Source of the DNA: Elusimicrobiales bacterium
GTDB lineage: Bacteria; Elusimicrobiota; Elusimicrobia; Elusimicrobiales; UBA9959
Reading direction: 5' to 3'
Assembly: GCA_049972095.1 (NCBI GenBank)
Contig: JBMFKQ010000003.1
Location: 1 to 64,000, forward strand
DNA: 64,000 nucleotides
Shown: positions 14,701 to 20,700 of the stretch, in pieces
Numbering within the stretch: position 1 is the first letter of the stretch
Layout of the letters: each line of letters begins with the position of its first letter
Position numbers: made by a program

Positions 14701-17700
14701 CCGCTCAAGTTCCAAATATGGCTTTGGAAGAACATTTAAGGTTTTATTTGATCTAATAATGGTTAGATTCTTTGGTGGAATGATAAACAAACCTATATAT
14801 CTTTTTGGCGGTGTGTCTTTTTTTCTCTTTAGCATCTCTATAATATTCTTTTTGATTACGCTTTACAATAAATGGTATAATCATATTTTTGTGAAGGATC
14901 AACCACTTTTTTTAGTTGCTATATTTATAAGCCTTGTGGCTGTTGAGATGATGATGATAGGAATTATAGCAGAGATACTAACAAGAGTATACTACAGGGA
15001 TAAGGTTGAATATATAGTAAAGGAAAAAACATATGAAAAATAAACATATAGCCATTGAGTTGAGTATTGATGATATAAAGAAAGAAAAGGAATTTAGATA
15101 TTTACAAGAGATAGATCCACATTGGTTTGATGATTGCTCATCAGAGTTTTATAGAATAACTTATGCTTATGGAGATCTTAAGTTAATGCTTGAAACATCA
15201 TCTATTTTTATATCAGGTAAATTCAGTTTCACAGCAAGACACACATGTTCAAGATGTGGAGATGAGTTTGAAGAGAATATAACAGAAGATATTTATGAGC
15301 TGTGCAAGCCTAATAGCTCTGGAATGATTGATGTTTTTCCTGTTTTGAGAGAATTGGTTGTAATAAATGAGCCGATAAAGATTCTGTGTCATTCATGCAG
15401 AGCTAAAGATAAAAAGGAGTGAATATGCCAAATCCAAAAAGAAAACACACAAGATCAAGAAGGGACAAAAGAAGATACCAAGCATGGAAGCTTGATATAA
15501 CAAATCTTTCTGTGTGCGCGAACTGTGGAGCACTTAAAAGAACACATATGGTCTGTCCTCAATGCGGATACTATAAAGGGAAACTTGTTATACCTAAAAA
15601 AGACAATGAAAAGAAAACTAAGGAAAGATAAACCTATGAAAATAGCACTTGATGCACATGGTGGAGATTTCGGTGTGGAGCCAAATATTAAGGCTGCAAT
15701 AAAGGCGGTGTCCGAGGGTGAGGTAGAGCTTATTCTTGTTGGAAGGGATGAGGAGATAAAGAAAGAATTGAAAAAACTTGGTTATTCCTCCCTTCCACAT
15801 GGGCTTTCAATAACTCATGCTTCGGATATTATAGAAATGGGTAGAGAGCCAGTTGATGAATGTAAAAGCAAACCAAACTCATCAATAATGGTTGGATGTG
15901 AGTTGGTTTCAGAAGGTCTTGCTAATGCATTTATATCAGCAGGAAACTCTGGTGCAGTTATGGTAGCTTCACTTTTGAAGATTAAAAGGATAAAAGGGAT
16001 CTCAAGACCAGCAATAGCTATTCCTTTTCCTACAAAAAAAGGCACATCCATAATACTGGATGTTGGAGCAAATACAGATGTCAAACCATTCAATCTTGTT
16101 CAATTTGCATTAATGGGAAGCGTTTTTTACAAAAATATATTTGAGAACAATAATCCAACTGTTGGAATACTATCAATTGGTGAGGAAGAAACAAAAGGCA
16201 ATTCCCTTGTTTTAGAGACATTGCCGCTTCTTAAAACTACAAAACATATAAATTTTATAGGACCTGTTGAAGGGAGGGATATACCTGAAGGAAAGGCAGA
16301 TATTGTTGTATGTGATGGTTTTGTTGGCAATATAGTGCTTAAACTTTCTGAGGGTATAGTCAAATTCATTAAGGACTTTTTATGTACAGAAATATCAAAA
16401 AGTCTTATGAGAAGGATAGGGGCCCTTCTTCTTAAGAATGTTTTCAAAGGTTTCAAAAACATAACGGATCCTGAAAGATTTGGAGGTGCTCTGTTGCTTG
16501 GTGTAGATGGAGTGATTATGGTATCTCATGGCAACTCATCAGATAGAGCAATATACAATGCCATTATGAGAGCAAGGGATGCTGTTGAAAGGGATATAAT
16601 AACAAAGATAAAGTCTGACCTTCAAGATATAATTGAAAATGCAGAAGAAAAAAACTGATATTAAGGAGTAAAAATGCTCTCTTTTAAAGAAAAAACAGTT
16701 CTTATAACGGGAGCAGCAGATGGAATAGGCAAAAGAACAGCTGAGATTTTTTGTGAACTTGAAGCTAATCTTGTGTTAATGGATGTGGATCCAAAGGTGA
16801 GGGAGGTTGTTGAGAGGCTTAGAGAAAAAAACTCAAAAGTATTTTACTTTCAGGGAGATGTCTCTGTTGAAGATGACTGCAAGAGCTTTATTGAGTTCGC
16901 AGTTAAAAATACAGGAAGAATAGATGTTCTTATCAATAATGCTGGCATAACATGTGATAACCTTGTGATAAGAATGAGCAAAGAAGAATTTTCAAAAGTT
17001 ATTGATATAAATCTTAAAGGACCTTTCTACCTTTCAAAATATGCCTTTATACATATGTCAAAGAACAGATATGGAAGGATAATAAATATATCATCAATAG
17101 TTGGTTTAACGGGACAGGCAGGACAAGCAAACTATGCATCATCAAAGGCAGGGCTTATAGGACTTACAAAATCTCTTGCAAGGGAGTTTTCAAAAAGGGG
17201 AATAACGGTAAATGCAGTTGCACCAGGATTTATAGAAACATCGATGACTGCAAAACTTGATGAAAAGACCAAACAGAGAATAATAGATCAGATACCTCTT
17301 CAAAGACTTGGAAGATGCGATGATGTTGCATGGGCTGTTGTGTTTCTTGCCTCGGAGTTAGCATCATATATAACAGGACAGGTTATATCTGTAAACGGTG
17401 GTCTTTATATGTAATTTTTTTTGTATAATATTTAAATCTAAGAGGAGGAGTTAAATGGCAATGACAAGAGATGAAATACTTAAAGAACTAACCAAGTTAA
17501 TAGCTGACTCACTAAGGATTGAAATCGATGAGATAAAAGAAGACTCAAAGTTTATTGATGATCTTGGTGCAGATTCACTTGATATAGCCGAGCTTATAAT
17601 GGCAATGGAAACAAGATTTGATATAGAAATACCTGATGAGGATGCACAAAAGATAAAAACAGTTGGAGATGCGGTGGATTATCTGGTTTCAAGGACATCT

Positions 17701-20700
17701 TCAAAGTAATGTTTCAAGATCCGGCTGAACTTGAAGAAAAGCTTGGTTATCATTTTATAAATCAGAAATACCTAAACAAGGCATTAACACACCGTTCCTA
17801 TGCAGCAGAGAGAAAACTCAATTACAGTAATGAAAGGCTTGAGTTTCTTGGAGACAGCGTTATAAACCTTATAGTAACTGAGTATCTAGTAGAAAAGTTT
17901 CCAGATAAAACGGAAGGATACCTATCAAAGATAAAATCACACTTAGTATCGTCAAAAAACCTATACAGATGGGCAAAGAGGGTAAATCTTGAAAACTATG
18001 TCAAGATCTCTATTGCTGAAATGAAAAGTGGTGGCAGAGAAAAACCACAGATATTGGCAAACACATTTGAGGCAATTATAGCAGCACTATATCTTGATGG
18101 AGGATTTGATTCAGCAAAAAGGATAATAAGAAATCTTCTTGAATGTGAAAAAGAGATAAAGATTGAAGATTATAAATCAACCCTGCAGGAATTATGTCAA
18201 AAAAAATTTAGAGTTATACCAGTTTATAAAATAATCTCAGAGGAAGGTCCCCAACATAAAAGGAGATTCAAAGTTTCTGTAGTTATAAAAGATAAAGAGG
18301 TTTCTGATGGTGAGGGTTATAGCAAAAAAGAGGCAGAAAATAACGCTGCAAAAAAGGCTCTTGCTTATATAAGGGGGTTGTGATATGATATACAATGAGA
18401 TTCACAAGGAGATTGAAAAACTTTCAAAGGAGTTTGCCATAAATATATTAAAGCCTCTTTCTATGGAATATGATGAGAGAGAGGAATTCCCAACCCAGCT
18501 TAGAAGTGAATATGAAAAAACAGGACTTTTTTCGGTCTTCTATCCAACTGAATACGGCGGTGTAAGTGGAGGAATAACAGGGCTTTGTATAGCCATAGAA
18601 GAGCTATCAAGGATTGATGGCTCACTTGCGCTTTTGCCTGCTACATCAGCACTTGGCTCAATACCTCTCATACTTTATGCAAATCACCAGCAAAGAAAAG
18701 AGCTATTTTATGATCTTTCCAGTGGCAAAAAGATTGCAGCATTTGCTCTGACTGAACCAGAGGCAGGCTCTGATGCAACAGCAATAAAGACAACAGCAAA
18801 AAGGGAAGGAGATTACTATATAATAAATGGAATGAAACATTTCTGTTCATCCGGTGGAATATCTGATGTATATGTTGTCTTTGCAAAGACTGCACCTCAA
18901 AAATGCGCAAGGGGAATAAGCTGTTTTTATATTGATAAAAATACTGAAGGATTTAAGATCGGAAAGAAAGAAAAAAAACTTGGGATAAGATCAAATCCAA
19001 CTACTGAAATCTATCTTGATAATGTAAAAGTTCCTGTTAAGAATATGATAGGTCAGGAAAACCTTGGTATTTTCATCCTTCAAGATACTTTTGAATTTTC
19101 AAGGCCAGGCGTTGCGGCTCAGGCTATTGGAATAGCAGAGGGGGCTTTTGCGATGACAGTAAGATATTTAAAACAAAGAACTCAGTTTGGTCAAAGTATC
19201 GCCTCGTTTCAAGCAGTATCACATAAGCTTGCTGACATGGCAACAAAGCTTGAGGCTGCAAGGAGATTTTTATACTCAATAACCTTTGAAATGGATGAGG
19301 TTTTTATACCAGCATTTGAAAATGCTGTTAAGAATCAGACAACTGTAAGAGATGAGATAAAAAAGCTTTCAAAAAAAAGATGGAATAAATTATCAGCAAT
19401 GGTGAAACTTTTCTCTTCGGATATAGCATTTGATATAACTCAGGAGTGCATTACACTATGTGGTGGAATAGGATATATAAGAGAGTTTGGGCTTGAAAAA
19501 TTTATGAGGGATGCAAAGGTAACACAAATATATGAGGGTGCGAACAATATCCAAAGAAATGAGATAGCATCAAGCATTTTAAAGGAATACTAATAAAATT
19601 TATAGGAAAATCTTACGATAAAATCAAAAGTGATATAATATTATTATGAATTTTGTCTTTTTTATTTTAGCATTTATCCTTGTATTAGCTGTTAGCATTT
19701 CAATGGTTCTTATTTCATATCTTTTTGGTCCATCATTAAAAACAGAGATAAAAAAACAGGTTTTTGAATGTGGTATGGAACAGGCAATGCCTGTTAAAAA
19801 ATGTGTGAATATAAATTTTTATGTAATAGCTGTTATATTTCTTGCTTTTGACATAGAGATAGTTTTTCTTTATCCTTGGGTATGGGGGTTTTCATCTTTG
19901 AGTGATTGTGGCTTTTTTGCAGGGCTGATTCTTATTGGAATAATTCTCTTTACAACATTCTATATTATAAGAAGGAAGGCTCTTGAATGGGATTAGAAAG
20001 ATTCTTTGCAGATTCATGGATAACTTCAAAGCTTGAATATGTCATAAACTGGGCAAGAAAATATTCTTTTTTTGGATATCCATTTGTTACAGCATGCTGT
20101 GGGATGGAGTATATGAGCACATTTGCATCAACATATGACATAGCAAGATTTGGTGCAGAGTTTCCGAGGTTTTCACCAAGACAGGCTGATGTCCTTTTTG
20201 TCGTTGGGACTATAAATCAAAAACTTGCCCCCGTTTTAAAAAGAGTGTATGAACAGATGCTTGAGCCAAAATGGGTGGTAGCTTTTGGCGTGTGTGCAAC
20301 AAGTGGTGGATTTTACCAGAATTATGCTGTAGTGGATGGTATAGATCGTATAATACCTGTTGATGTCTATATACCAGGATGCCCTCCAAGACCACAAGCA
20401 TTTTTAGATGCATTAATAAGACTTCAGGAAAAAGTTCAAAAAGAAAAATCTATAAAATAAAGAAATGACTCAGAATAAAATAATATCTGAACTGGTAGAA
20501 AGATTTAAAGAAGGTATAATTGAGATCAAAAATAATTATGCAATAGACTATCTTAGAGTTAAGAAAGATTATGTTAAGCATATTATAAAATTTCTTAAAG
20601 AAAGCAGCTTTGAATTTTTGATGGATCTTTCGGCGGTTGATTATCTTGGCTATCCTCAAAAGGAAAATACAGAAAGATTTGAGGTTGTATATAATTTGTA

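Follow-up and report, generated by a model that had tools for sequence, protein, structure and literature searches.

The type R megasynthase of the Pfa-like family is proposed here, with a probability of roughly 0.7, to be the primary enzyme that forms carbon-carbon bonds and loads malonyl units when membrane fatty acids are made in most Elusimicrobiales and four sister families (f5, f6, f8, and f29). The proposal is based on gene content and sequence. Its narrower part, that the synthase is the primary condensing system, is very likely. The synthase would act as a hybrid with the leftover enzymes of type II fatty acid synthesis (FAS II). Bacterial membrane fatty acids are held to come from FAS II or, in one actinobacterial group, from FAS I, and Pfa-like synthases are considered extras. 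If the proposal is true, the order and the four sister families possess a Pfa-like synthase as their only condensing system, and they provide a natural lineage-wide case of the 'core' Pfa-like synthase that was guessed in 2011 for two single species. New in this work are a 550-residue acyl-CoA dehydrogenase (ACAD550) with EtfAB as the probable enoyl reductase, a FabF-like second ketosynthase (KS2) that appears to be lost together with fabZ, and threonine in all tandem ACPs.

The window is the whole stretch of 64,000 nucleotides that was analysed, from an Elusimicrobiales genome of 96.5% completeness in 58 contigs. The features of the window and of contigs C1 and C29 are shown in Table 1.

Table 1. 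Coordinates of the fab operon and other features in the window, and of the synthase cluster and ACAD550 on contigs C1 and C29.
Feature	Position	Strand	Evidence or remark
yceD-like gene	15033..15422	+	Pfam YceD 29.8 bits, just below cut-off; heads the conserved operon, same position in relatives
rpmF (L32)	15425..15631	+	TIGR01031, above cut-off
plsX, phosphate acyltransferase	15636..16658	+	TIGR00182 350 bits, above cut-off
plsX-fabG junction, 15 nt	16659..16673	+	Site of fabH and fabD in FAS II relatives
fabG, 3-oxoacyl-ACP reductase, retained	16674..17414	+	TIGR01830 311 bits, above cut-off
acpP, stand-alone ACP, retained	17455..17709	+	TIGR00517, above cut-off; canonical serine in sequence
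rnc (RNase III)	17709..18383	+	TIGR02191, above cut-off
ACAD400, 402-aa acyl-CoA dehydrogenase, end of operon	18385..19593	+	Under curated NCBIfam cut-offs
Second etfB-etfA pair	37733..39356	+	Pfam ETF, ETF_alpha
Type R synthase	C1:11411-19041
100-N assembly gap in synthase	C1:16197-16296
PPTase, downstream of synthase	C1:19043-19738		Pfam ACPS 24-26 bits, around cut-off
ACAD550 and EtfAB	C29:2048-5743

The first-pass annotation had described an operon rpmF-plsX-fabG-acpP-rnc without fabH, fabD, and fabF, and this is confirmed. Each of the five genes exceeds an NCBIfam cut-off, and acpP and rnc overlap by 1 nt at the place of fabF in relatives. The seven FAS II relatives exhibit the order plsX-fabH-fabD-fabG-acpP-fabF-rnc-ACAD. 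Of 13 operons that come from family f7 and the synthase lineages, 12 have the short order plsX-fabG-acpP-rnc; the exception, G088, also lacks fabG. The annotation had overlooked that the operon continues into ACAD400 and that a stand-alone fabZ is located on contig C12. Excision from the operon does not prove loss by itself, since G086 has the same short operon, yet has FabF and FabH elsewhere.

Searches of the whole genome (phmmer and tblastn) with FabH, FabD, FabF, FabI, FabK-like, and FabV queries matched only the C1 synthase and fabG, in agreement with the claim that fabH, fabD, and fabF are absent elsewhere. As the genome is in 58 contigs, this absence is argued from the order-wide pattern and not from one assembly alone. 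In the phylum sample, no order genome (0 of 44) has a FabF above the cut-off, compared with 72 of 77 genomes from outside the order. Among 101 class genomes, FabF, FabD, and FabH exceed their cut-offs in 0, 0, and 0 of the 42 that bear the type R synthase and in 32, 29, and 34 of the 59 that do not. The loss is thus order-wide as had been claimed, but it is not confined to the order, since the 42 genomes include the four sister families. These cut-offs are exceeded in 9, 9, and 8 of 14 controls, and they miss divergent enzymes such as the stand-alone FabD-like genes of f7, which score 91-122 bits.

The earlier statement that FAS II is gone was too strong. Compared with a complete FAS II, this genome lacks stand-alone FabF/FabB, FabD, and FabH but retains the reductive half and the carrier (FabG, FabZ, AcpP, and AcpS). 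The stand-alone FabZ exceeds its cut-off here and is present in 55 of 61 order genomes, and the AcpS of this genome passes domain models only. FabI, FabK, and FabV have no match in this genome, and fabG is indeed its sole stand-alone SDR match, in searches where FabL had no query of its own. AccC (above cut-off), BCCP, one carboxyltransferase, PlsX, PlsC, PlsY, LpxA, and LpxD are also present. PlsX, LpxA, and LpxD require acyl-ACP. The synthase carries the only ketosynthase and malonyl-transferase domains that were found in this genome. The label of only fatty acid synthase does not extend to the whole order, where 10 of 61 genomes encode a second Pfa-like synthase, a large PfaC-like ORF that includes FabA-type dehydratase domains, and stand-alone KS genes scoring 270-293 bits occur in 11 of 44; the one KS gene that was scanned belongs to an aryl-polyene/flexirubin-like cluster.

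The synthase exhibits the Pfam domains KS-AT-KS-(ACP)-KR-DH, and the catalytic residues of KS1, AT, KS2, KR, and DH are kept. The number of ACPs cannot be counted in this genome because of the assembly gap. The synthase of G056, from the same family, is a single frame of 2898 aa with four ACPs and is 78% identical over the N-terminal part, and 20 relatives have 1-5 tandem ACPs. The synthase is present in 34 of 34 order genomes with a carboxyltransferase behind it. Synthase, PPTase, and carboxyltransferase form one unit, and in this respect the reported co-encoding of a PPTase and an acetyl-CoA carboxyltransferase stands; however, the best-scoring model for the latter is MmdA (711 bits, below its cut-off) rather than AccA/AccD, so that acetyl-CoA is only its presumed substrate. 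The PPTases of G020 and G062 score higher on Pfam ACPS (43-44 bits). The Pfam domains of either synthase ORF include no enoyl reductase, thioesterase, or release/transacylase domain. This genome has no PfaD (no PF03060 match at E<=1e-8) and no PfaC-like ORF, and the only dehydratase of the synthase is one PKS-type DH. The PfaA model gives 548 bits against a cut-off of 1010. Relatives with 51-58% identity occur in loci of Solibacteraceae and Korobacteraceae.

Threonine replaces the phosphopantetheine serine in all of the tandem ACPs. The balance leans slightly towards the co-encoded PPTase priming the tandem ACPs at this threonine, separately from the serine pair of AcpS and AcpP. The threonine could also mean that the cis carriers are never primed.

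The type R synthase has been listed for Elusimicrobium minutum, Koribacter, Solibacter, and Roseiflexus (Shulse & Allen, 2011; PMC3098273) as one PfaA-like gene of KS-MAT-(second KS)-tandem ACP-KR that is followed by a PPTase, with a carboxylase in one cluster and 3-6 tandem ACPs as the criterion. It is treated there as an accessory synthase with the second KS termed CLF; a 'core' role is suggested in that text for types M and S alone, on the grounds that fabA/fabZ are missing there, and its main text does not mention DH, a reductase partner, or a threonine ACP for type R. The synthase in this work shares with type R the single pfaA homolog, the N-terminal KS-MAT, the second KS-like domain between MAT and the ACPs, the KR after the ACPs, and the PPTase downstream. 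It differs from type R as described in that an entire order lacks FabH, FabD, and FabF. The Pfa PUFA synthase (types A/B) of Photobacterium profundum complements FAS II, where its MAT can load the FAS II carrier, and substitution of the PfaA malonyl-transferase for FabD in vivo is a precedent (PMC8174602). Both synthases have the iterative KS-MAT-ACPn-KR design. However, the PUFA synthase is multi-gene, with its own PfaD reductase and a PfaC of KS-CLF and two FabA-type dehydratases alongside complete FAS II, whereas the Elusimicrobiales synthase is one gene with one PKS-type DH, no PfaD, and three lost FAS II initiation/condensation genes. FAS I of Corynebacterineae has all domains in cis, whereas the synthase in this work shows neither a reductase nor a release domain, contains two ketosynthases along with tandem ACPs, and stands beside FabG/FabZ/AcpP. 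In its bacterial lineage, FAS I is a single large polypeptide that chiefly supplies the membrane acyl chains (PMC3098273), as is proposed here for the synthase.

The CLF label is unfit for KS2, since KS2 of this genome keeps Cys-His-His and resembles FabF. Its best solved relatives are FabF by profile and by fold (moderate-confidence model, pLDDT 65), and a quick tree places it apart from the type I KS clade. Unlike FabF (KAS II), it is fused inside a megasynthase; it is about 19% identical to FabF, with long insertions and its own long branch. The Cys and first His motif are present in 36 of 42 synthases. A working KS2 is missing from six genomes, which coincide exactly with the 6 of 61 that have no stand-alone FabZ; they also lack ACAD400. 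The fabZ gene is cleanly cut from lpxC-lpxA in all five of the six that were examined, and LpxA is retained in 5 of 5 tested. These genomes are two triplets of one genus whose joint clade is unsupported (0.076), thus representing one or two loss events. KS2 is kept without ACAD400 in G062 and G088, which counts against a link between those two. We tentatively suggest that KS2 serves the stand-alone AcpP by elongation or chain hand-over, and that FabG, FabZ, and ACAD400 may thus supply acyl-AcpP, which would go to PlsX/PlsC, and 3-hydroxyacyl-AcpP, which would go to lipid A.

The role of KS2 is the sole difference from a self-sufficient type I-like FAS, which is possible but not favoured. Every reaction would then take place on the cis ACPs, a single reductase being borrowed, and FabG, FabZ, and AcpP would persist only to accept completed chains and to tailor 3-hydroxy chains destined for lipid A. 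This is consistent with KS1, AT, KR, and DH being intact in 17 of 20 full-length synthases, with the cluster elsewhere being a complete unit of reductase, synthase, carboxylase, and PPTase, and with G076, G078, and G080, which retain KS1, KR, DH, and ACAD550 without KS2 or FabZ. The missing release or transacylase domain, the loss of fabZ only together with KS2, and the likeness of KS2 to type II FabF argue for the hybrid instead.

The missing enoyl reductase is probably ACAD550 with EtfAB. More generally, it is rather likely that a synthase without an enoyl reductase borrows one in trans, namely ACAD550 fed by EtfAB, or FabI in sister families. Among 65 loci outside Elusimicrobiota, ACAD550 is immediately upstream of the synthase in 54 of the 54 bacterial loci that show the synthase start, the 11 without a visible start being left out. 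Those non-Elusimicrobial loci include etfB in 19 and a downstream carboxylase in 34, which in two scanned loci is a single-chain BC-BCCP-CT protein. ACAD550 is present in 35 of 42 synthase genomes. The seven without it comprise four in which a FabI-like gene immediately precedes the synthase (G074, G122, G124, and G132) and three with a KR/DH-dead synthase (G020, G023, and G038). None of the 32 genomes outside f7 that lack the synthase has ACAD550; its presence in 10 of 27 f7 genomes without the type R synthase counts against the tie. No ortholog was found in four archaeal synthase genomes. In 30 of 30 loci, etfB adjoins ACAD550. Its best fold is 2z1q (TM 0.73-0.77) with a VLCAD/FadE-like C-terminal extension, and this extension and the tie to the synthase suggest an ACP-bound substrate.

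ACAD400 homologs are present in 111 of 121 phylum genomes, directly behind fabF-rnc in 59 of 72 FabF genomes. The dehydrogenase search found one of the two ACADs of this genome and can miss paralogs. FabI, FabV, and FabK-like genes are found in only 2, 3, and 29 of the 121 genomes (the FabV search had 0 positives among 14 controls), so most FAS II members are without a known reductase. ACAD400 is a candidate enoyl-AcpP reductase and ancestral last member of the fab operon, with butyryl-CoA dehydrogenase as the rival role; the etfB-etfA pair in the window is its possible electron partner. AcrC is the best family for both ACAD550 (245 bits) and ACAD400 (339 bits; cut-off 640), and neither reaches a curated cut-off of the named NCBIfam ACAD families (AcrC, FadE, and others). 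The ACAD fold, the IYEG motif, and EtfB with a ferredoxin-fused EtfA are features in common with Bcd-EtfAB, CarCDE, and AcrABC. Those complexes reduce short CoA esters in energy metabolism, whereas ACAD550 has the extension and the tie to the synthase.

It is rather unlikely that both ACADs are Bcd-EtfAB of energy metabolism, acting on crotonyl-CoA from lysine fermentation while another protein is the enoyl reductase, or that ACAD550 oxidises and adds a double bond. An ordinary job for an acyl-CoA dehydrogenase/Etf is available here, since this genome has lysine 5,6-aminomutase (above cut-off) and thiolase, with a weak 3-hydroxyacyl-CoA dehydrogenase match, and Bcd/EtfAB of Elusimicrobia have been read as energy conservation (bioRxiv 10.1101/765248). 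ACAD400 adjoins rnc in only 5 of the best 30 loci, and 10 f7 genomes have ACAD550 without the synthase. However, this does not account for the adjacency of ACAD550 and synthase across phyla, the swap with FabI, the loss of ACAD550 exactly where KR/DH are dead, or ACAD400 in the fab operon of members without a known reductase. The energy role is more likely for ACAD400 than for ACAD550.

Fatty-acid auxotrophy, with scavenged acyl chains and a synthase for an accessory lipid or for extension to 3-hydroxyacyl-ACP of lipid A, is improbable. Outside the phylum, FabF exceeds the cut-off in 25 of 50 synthase genomes and has a match at E<=1e-75 in 39 of 50; the synthase is mostly alongside FAS II there, so the family is usually accessory. 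FadD-like and Aas-like ligases are present in 4 of 4 gut-type order genomes tested, which can therefore scavenge, and neither synthase nor FAS II condensing system was detected in G092 and G128. The synthases of G020, G023, and G038 (3 of 34 order genomes) are missing KS2, the tyrosine of KR, and the histidine of DH and cannot act as a complete FAS; only KS1-AT-ACP is active, and FabG, AcpP (seen in G020), and LpxA are kept. Auxotrophy is likely true for these three only. The first-pass annotation had left scavenging open, but no long-chain acyl-CoA/ACP ligase (FadD, Aas) or DegV was found in this genome, only LuxE and a LuxC-ligase fusion. The presence of synthase and carboxyltransferase throughout the order and the FabI-like gene beside the synthase in four sister genomes also argue against it.

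Reversed beta-oxidation on CoA (thiolase, dehydrogenase, hydratase, and ACAD/Etf) without the synthase is very improbable: thiolase and two ACAD/Etf sets exist, but two E. coli crotonase queries gave no match, the dehydrogenase match is weak, acyl-ACP is needed by the acyltransferases, and the retained synthase, AccC, and carboxyltransferase are left unexplained. The chance that the absences are artefacts of incomplete assemblies or cut-offs is negligible; most genomes are multi-contig, and G140, G144, and G043 have no FabF match though their families carry FabF, but the order-wide zero for FabF covers one single-contig and one two-contig genome, both operon junctions are unbroken on one contig, and the controls pass as given above.

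Taken jointly, the type R cluster as a third kind of primary bacterial fatty acid synthase is doubtful. It would be a two-ketosynthase megasynthase with phosphopantetheine on the carrier threonine, loaded by the dedicated PPTase. Enoyl reduction would be performed by the acyl-CoA-dehydrogenase/Etf flavoprotein, which might bifurcate electrons given the ferredoxin domains of EtfA, and the FabF-like KS2 would feed the remaining AcpP/FabG/FabZ pool. Throughout Elusimicrobiota, ACAD400 would act in ordinary FAS II as an enoyl-ACP reductase that has so far escaped recognition, and some Thermoplasmatota archaea would owe to this synthase a fatty acid pathway that runs on ACP. This nominates candidates for a fifth kind of enoyl-ACP reductase, checkable by one enzyme assay, and for a threonine-primed carrier, checkable by one mass spectrum. 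Cultured Elusimicrobium and Parelusimicrobium species carry the synthase gene and need lipids, so the old question of what type R synthases make is now testable.

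The fab operon in the window reads yceD-rpmF-plsX-fabG-acpP-rnc, followed by an acyl-CoA dehydrogenase gene (ACAD400) and complex I genes. The gap 3' of plsX is 15 nt, and acpP and rnc overlap by 1 nt. The operon of seven FAS II relatives is plsX-fabH-fabD-fabG-acpP-fabF-rnc-ACAD, and etfB-etfA are annotated behind the dehydrogenase gene in six of the seven, save where the stretch ended. Since these relatives keep the full order, fabH, fabD, and fabF have been removed from the ancestral operon. FabH, FabD, FabF, FabI, FabK-like, and FabV queries against the whole genome (58 contigs totalling 1.44 Mb; completeness 96.5%) matched only fabG and the type R Pfa-like synthase on contig C1. 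Assignment of the genome to the order follows the names carried by homologs. The operon layout and these protein queries confirm the first-pass annotation that the three genes are excised and are found nowhere else in the genome. The operon on contig C9 of G088 (L108) lacks fabG as well, and the PlsX of genus g16 is under the cut-off.

The C1 synthase has the layout KS-AT-KS-(ACP)-KR-DH, is broken here by a 100-N gap, and is followed by a PPTase gene and a carboxyltransferase gene. The domain search found no release domain in the synthase. A YbgC-type thioesterase is encoded on contig C25. The coordinates of the features are listed in the table.

Positions of the genes and loci discussed in the text (G000, genome under study)
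Feature	Position	Remarks
ACAD400	window 18385-19593	402-aa acyl-CoA dehydrogenase behind rnc
Complex I genes	window 19646-32553	directly behind ACAD400; nuoA-D identified
ACAD550	C29:2048-3715	555 aa; etfB and ferredoxin-fused etfA behind
LuxE gene, then LuxC-ligase fusion (872 aa)	L146:3829-7641, G000:C17	fatty acid reductase-like pair
Serine palmitoyltransferase-like gene	L296:7112-8308, G000:C25	543 bits against a cut-off of 640; accC lies two genes before it
Lysine 5,6-aminomutase, aminomutase-like gene, thiolase, VorB-type oxidoreductase	L294:2984-9693, G000:C7	one run
Single-chain acyl-CoA carboxylase, BC-BCCP-ACC_central-CT, ~1850 aa	L181:15248-20890; L212:14244-19724	behind the synthase, other bacteria
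Family f7 example loci	L279 = G086:C5:188001-208000; L277 = G170	

FabF passed its cut-off in none of 44 Elusimicrobiales genomes, compared with 72 of 77 others. The synthase was found in 42 of the 101 genomes of a class sample, namely in all 34 genomes of the order and in the sister families f5 (4/4), f6 (1/1), f29 (1/1), and f8 (2/4). FabF, FabD, and FabH each passed in none of these 42 genomes; among the other 59, FabF passed in 32, FabD in 29, and FabH in 34. The proposed order-wide loss of the three enzymes is therefore borne out. Matches below the cut-offs in the 42 synthase genomes comprise two FabD-like genes that stand alone, scoring 113 and 142 bits, and FabH-like genes of 195-208 bits in three genomes. 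Stand-alone KS genes occur in 11 of the 44 order genomes; the one of the eleven that was scanned sits in an aryl-polyene/flexirubin-like cluster of pigment type, and on the strength of this one case those of genus g8 were rejected as residual FAS II. Because related genomes are not independent, the pattern probably reflects one ancient replacement. G092 (L112, L124) and G128 of family f8 yielded no match to the FAS II condensing genes or to the synthase, which suggests auxotrophy or an assembly gap.

The loss of FAS II in the order appears unreported. The literature search, whose scope did not extend to the E. minutum genome paper, returned no statement of it, and an earlier mention is possible. 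The portions of PMC13291983 and PMC4882568 covered by term checks hold no type R or Elusimicrobia text. The synthase corresponds to type R of Shulse & Allen (2011; PMC3098273), whose list includes E. minutum; in the sections available, a core role is suggested for types M and S only.

The findings are most consistent with a hybrid system: condensation and malonyl transfer would come from the megasynthase (probability about 0.8), working alongside the remnants of FAS II. FabG and AcpP are retained in the operon. FabZ is kept within lpxD-lpxC-fabZ-lpxA-lpxI, and a stand-alone FabZ is present in 55 of 61 order genomes. AcpS was found by family search, so its loss, which had been hinted at by a motif scan, was rejected. 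The acyl-ACP consumers in the genome are PlsX, PlsY, PlsC, LpxA, and LpxD. The first-pass annotation, which held that FAS II is gone and that the megasynthase is the primary and only fatty acid synthase of the order, is thus upheld in its observation and supported in part in its interpretation. The condensing enzymes are lost, but FabG, FabZ, AcpP, and AcpS are kept. The primary role is likely for most of the order, but in three of the 34 order genomes the synthase is unable to act as a complete fatty acid synthase. The whole-genome queries support a sole synthase in this genome, but a second, PfaC-like ORF is present in 10 of 61 order genomes.

The three exceptions are G020, G023, and G038 (L085, L086, L087), where KS2, the second ketosynthase, is deleted, the KR and DH residues are lost, KS1-AT-ACP is intact, and LpxA is kept. 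These genomes exhibit staged decay of the synthase within one genus. They probably scavenge fatty acids (G020 was tested), and the remnant synthase may extend scavenged chains for lipid A and nothing more. In the genome under study, no FadD-like, Aas-like, or DegV match was found, and the LuxE and LuxC-ligase fusion genes were the sole ligase-type matches of the scavenging search. FadD-like and Aas-like genes are present in all four gut-type relatives tested.

The Cys and the first His motif of KS2 are intact in 36 of 42 synthases. The second KS of type R is described as a chain-length factor in the available text of Shulse & Allen (2011; PMC3098273), whereas the catalytic residues are kept here and that role was rejected. 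The closest solved relatives of KS2 are FabF, both by profile and by the fold of a predicted model (pLDDT 65). A quick tree, the sole KS phylogeny, places KS2 outside the type I clade, beside long branches of unsure place. KS2 is dead or deleted in six genomes, the very same six in which FabZ is missing among the 61; they also lack ACAD400, and LpxA is kept in 5/5 tested. This co-loss, which amounts to one or two events in a single genus, links KS2 with the pool of stand-alone AcpP that it would serve. Cross-talk between synthase and AcpP is plausible because the PfaA malonyl-transferase substitutes for FabD in vivo, according to the part of PMC8174602 available.

The enoyl step would be performed by a separate flavoprotein acting in trans, which we consider fairly probable. 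No FabK/PfaD, FabI, or FabV that could serve as the reductase was found in this genome. FabK-like matches above 95 bits were absent from all 54 genomes of the class in the phylum sample, and FabI and FabV were present in only 2 and 3 of 121 phylum genomes, respectively. The acyl-CoA dehydrogenase on contig C29 (ACAD550) is VLCAD/FadE-like by predicted structure (pLDDT 85). Its orthologs (52-64% identity) lie immediately 5' of the synthase in all 54 loci of other bacteria that show the synthase start; 11 more loci, too short or frameshifted, are outside this count. A carboxylase follows the synthase in 34 loci, and it is a single-chain enzyme of eukaryote-like domain layout in both scanned cases. 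In the class sample, ACAD550 is present in 35 of 42 synthase genomes, a pattern predicted beforehand. In four of the seven genomes without it, the slot 5' of the synthase is occupied by a FabI-like gene (top scores against FabI models, 254-261 bits, under the cut-offs); in the other three, the synthase lacks the KR tyrosine and DH histidine and thus makes no enoyl intermediate. Outside family f7, ACAD550 is absent from all 32 genomes without synthase; within f7 it is found in 10 of 27, with one copy within the fab operon. ACAD550 is a reasonably likely enoyl reductase of the synthase, for which we infer the substrate and reaction direction, and it fits this role better than ACAD400.

ACAD400 was rejected as the sole reductase, as it is absent from seven order genomes including G062, whose synthase is intact. 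The genes behind the carboxyltransferase in genomes without ACAD400 are unrelated and were rejected as hidden reductases. Of the 121 phylum genomes, 111 have a homolog of ACAD400; it lies behind fabF-rnc in 59 of 72 FabF genomes. In FAS II Elusimicrobiota, the fab operon consistently ends with ACAD-etfB-etfA, and most of these members show no FabI, FabK, or FabV. ACAD400 is therefore a candidate enoyl reductase for AcpP and, across FAS II Elusimicrobiota, a candidate for an unrecognised FAS II enoyl reductase. The rival reading is that ACAD400 is an ordinary Bcd, which is favoured by the lysine 5,6-aminomutase and thiolase genes of this genome and by the Bcd role assumed for Elusimicrobia in the text available of bioRxiv 10.1101/765248. 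The literature search returned no ACAD described as an enoyl-ACP reductase.

The ACP repeats were searched with a pattern left open at the attachment position. Threonine occupies this position in 55/55 repeats of 20 Elusimicrobial synthases, in 228/228 repeats from 69 of 80 loci, and in 322/322 repeats from 114 of 120 homologs. It aligns with the serine of PigH ACPs, and serine is also found in the PfaA-like f7 protein. E. coli ACP with serine changed to threonine at the attachment position is reported to stay unprimed. The PPTase adjoins the synthase and is fused to it in one archaeal case; its retention there while AcpS persists favours carriers that would be primed on threonine, the alternative being that these carriers are never primed.

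The short operon is also found in family f7 (2/2 examined), from which the type R synthase is absent. The operon excision is thus older than, or independent of, the present partner. FabF and FabH are each present in 4 of 27 f7 genomes and canonical FabD in none; most carry a stand-alone FabD-like gene of divergent sequence. Pfa-like KS genes occur as a pair in 19 of 27, adjoined by a PfaD-sized match in G086, and the primary synthase of f7 may be a canonical Pfa cluster. Eight small f7 genomes show no FAS II condensing genes and no such pair.

At least 597 relatives of the synthase were found outside the phylum. FabF passed the cut-off in 25 of 50 genomes tested, drawn from 69 non-Elusimicrobial synthase loci, so the extension of FAS II replacement by type R to other phyla was rejected, and the family is mostly accessory there. 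In four Thermoplasmatota records (L175, L184, L194, L240) the synthase lies behind the carboxyltransferase, with biotin carboxylase downstream in two and a fused PPTase in one. FabF and ACAD550 orthologs are absent from these four nominally archaeal genomes.

For malonyl-CoA supply, the genome under study has AccC, which passes its cut-off, together with a biotin carrier and a single carboxyltransferase, which is MmdA-like and of putative acetyl-CoA specificity. The serine palmitoyltransferase-like product is a possible sphingolipid consumer of acyl chains. The fatty acids of E. minutum are reported to be branched and saturated. Vor could be a source of branched primers.
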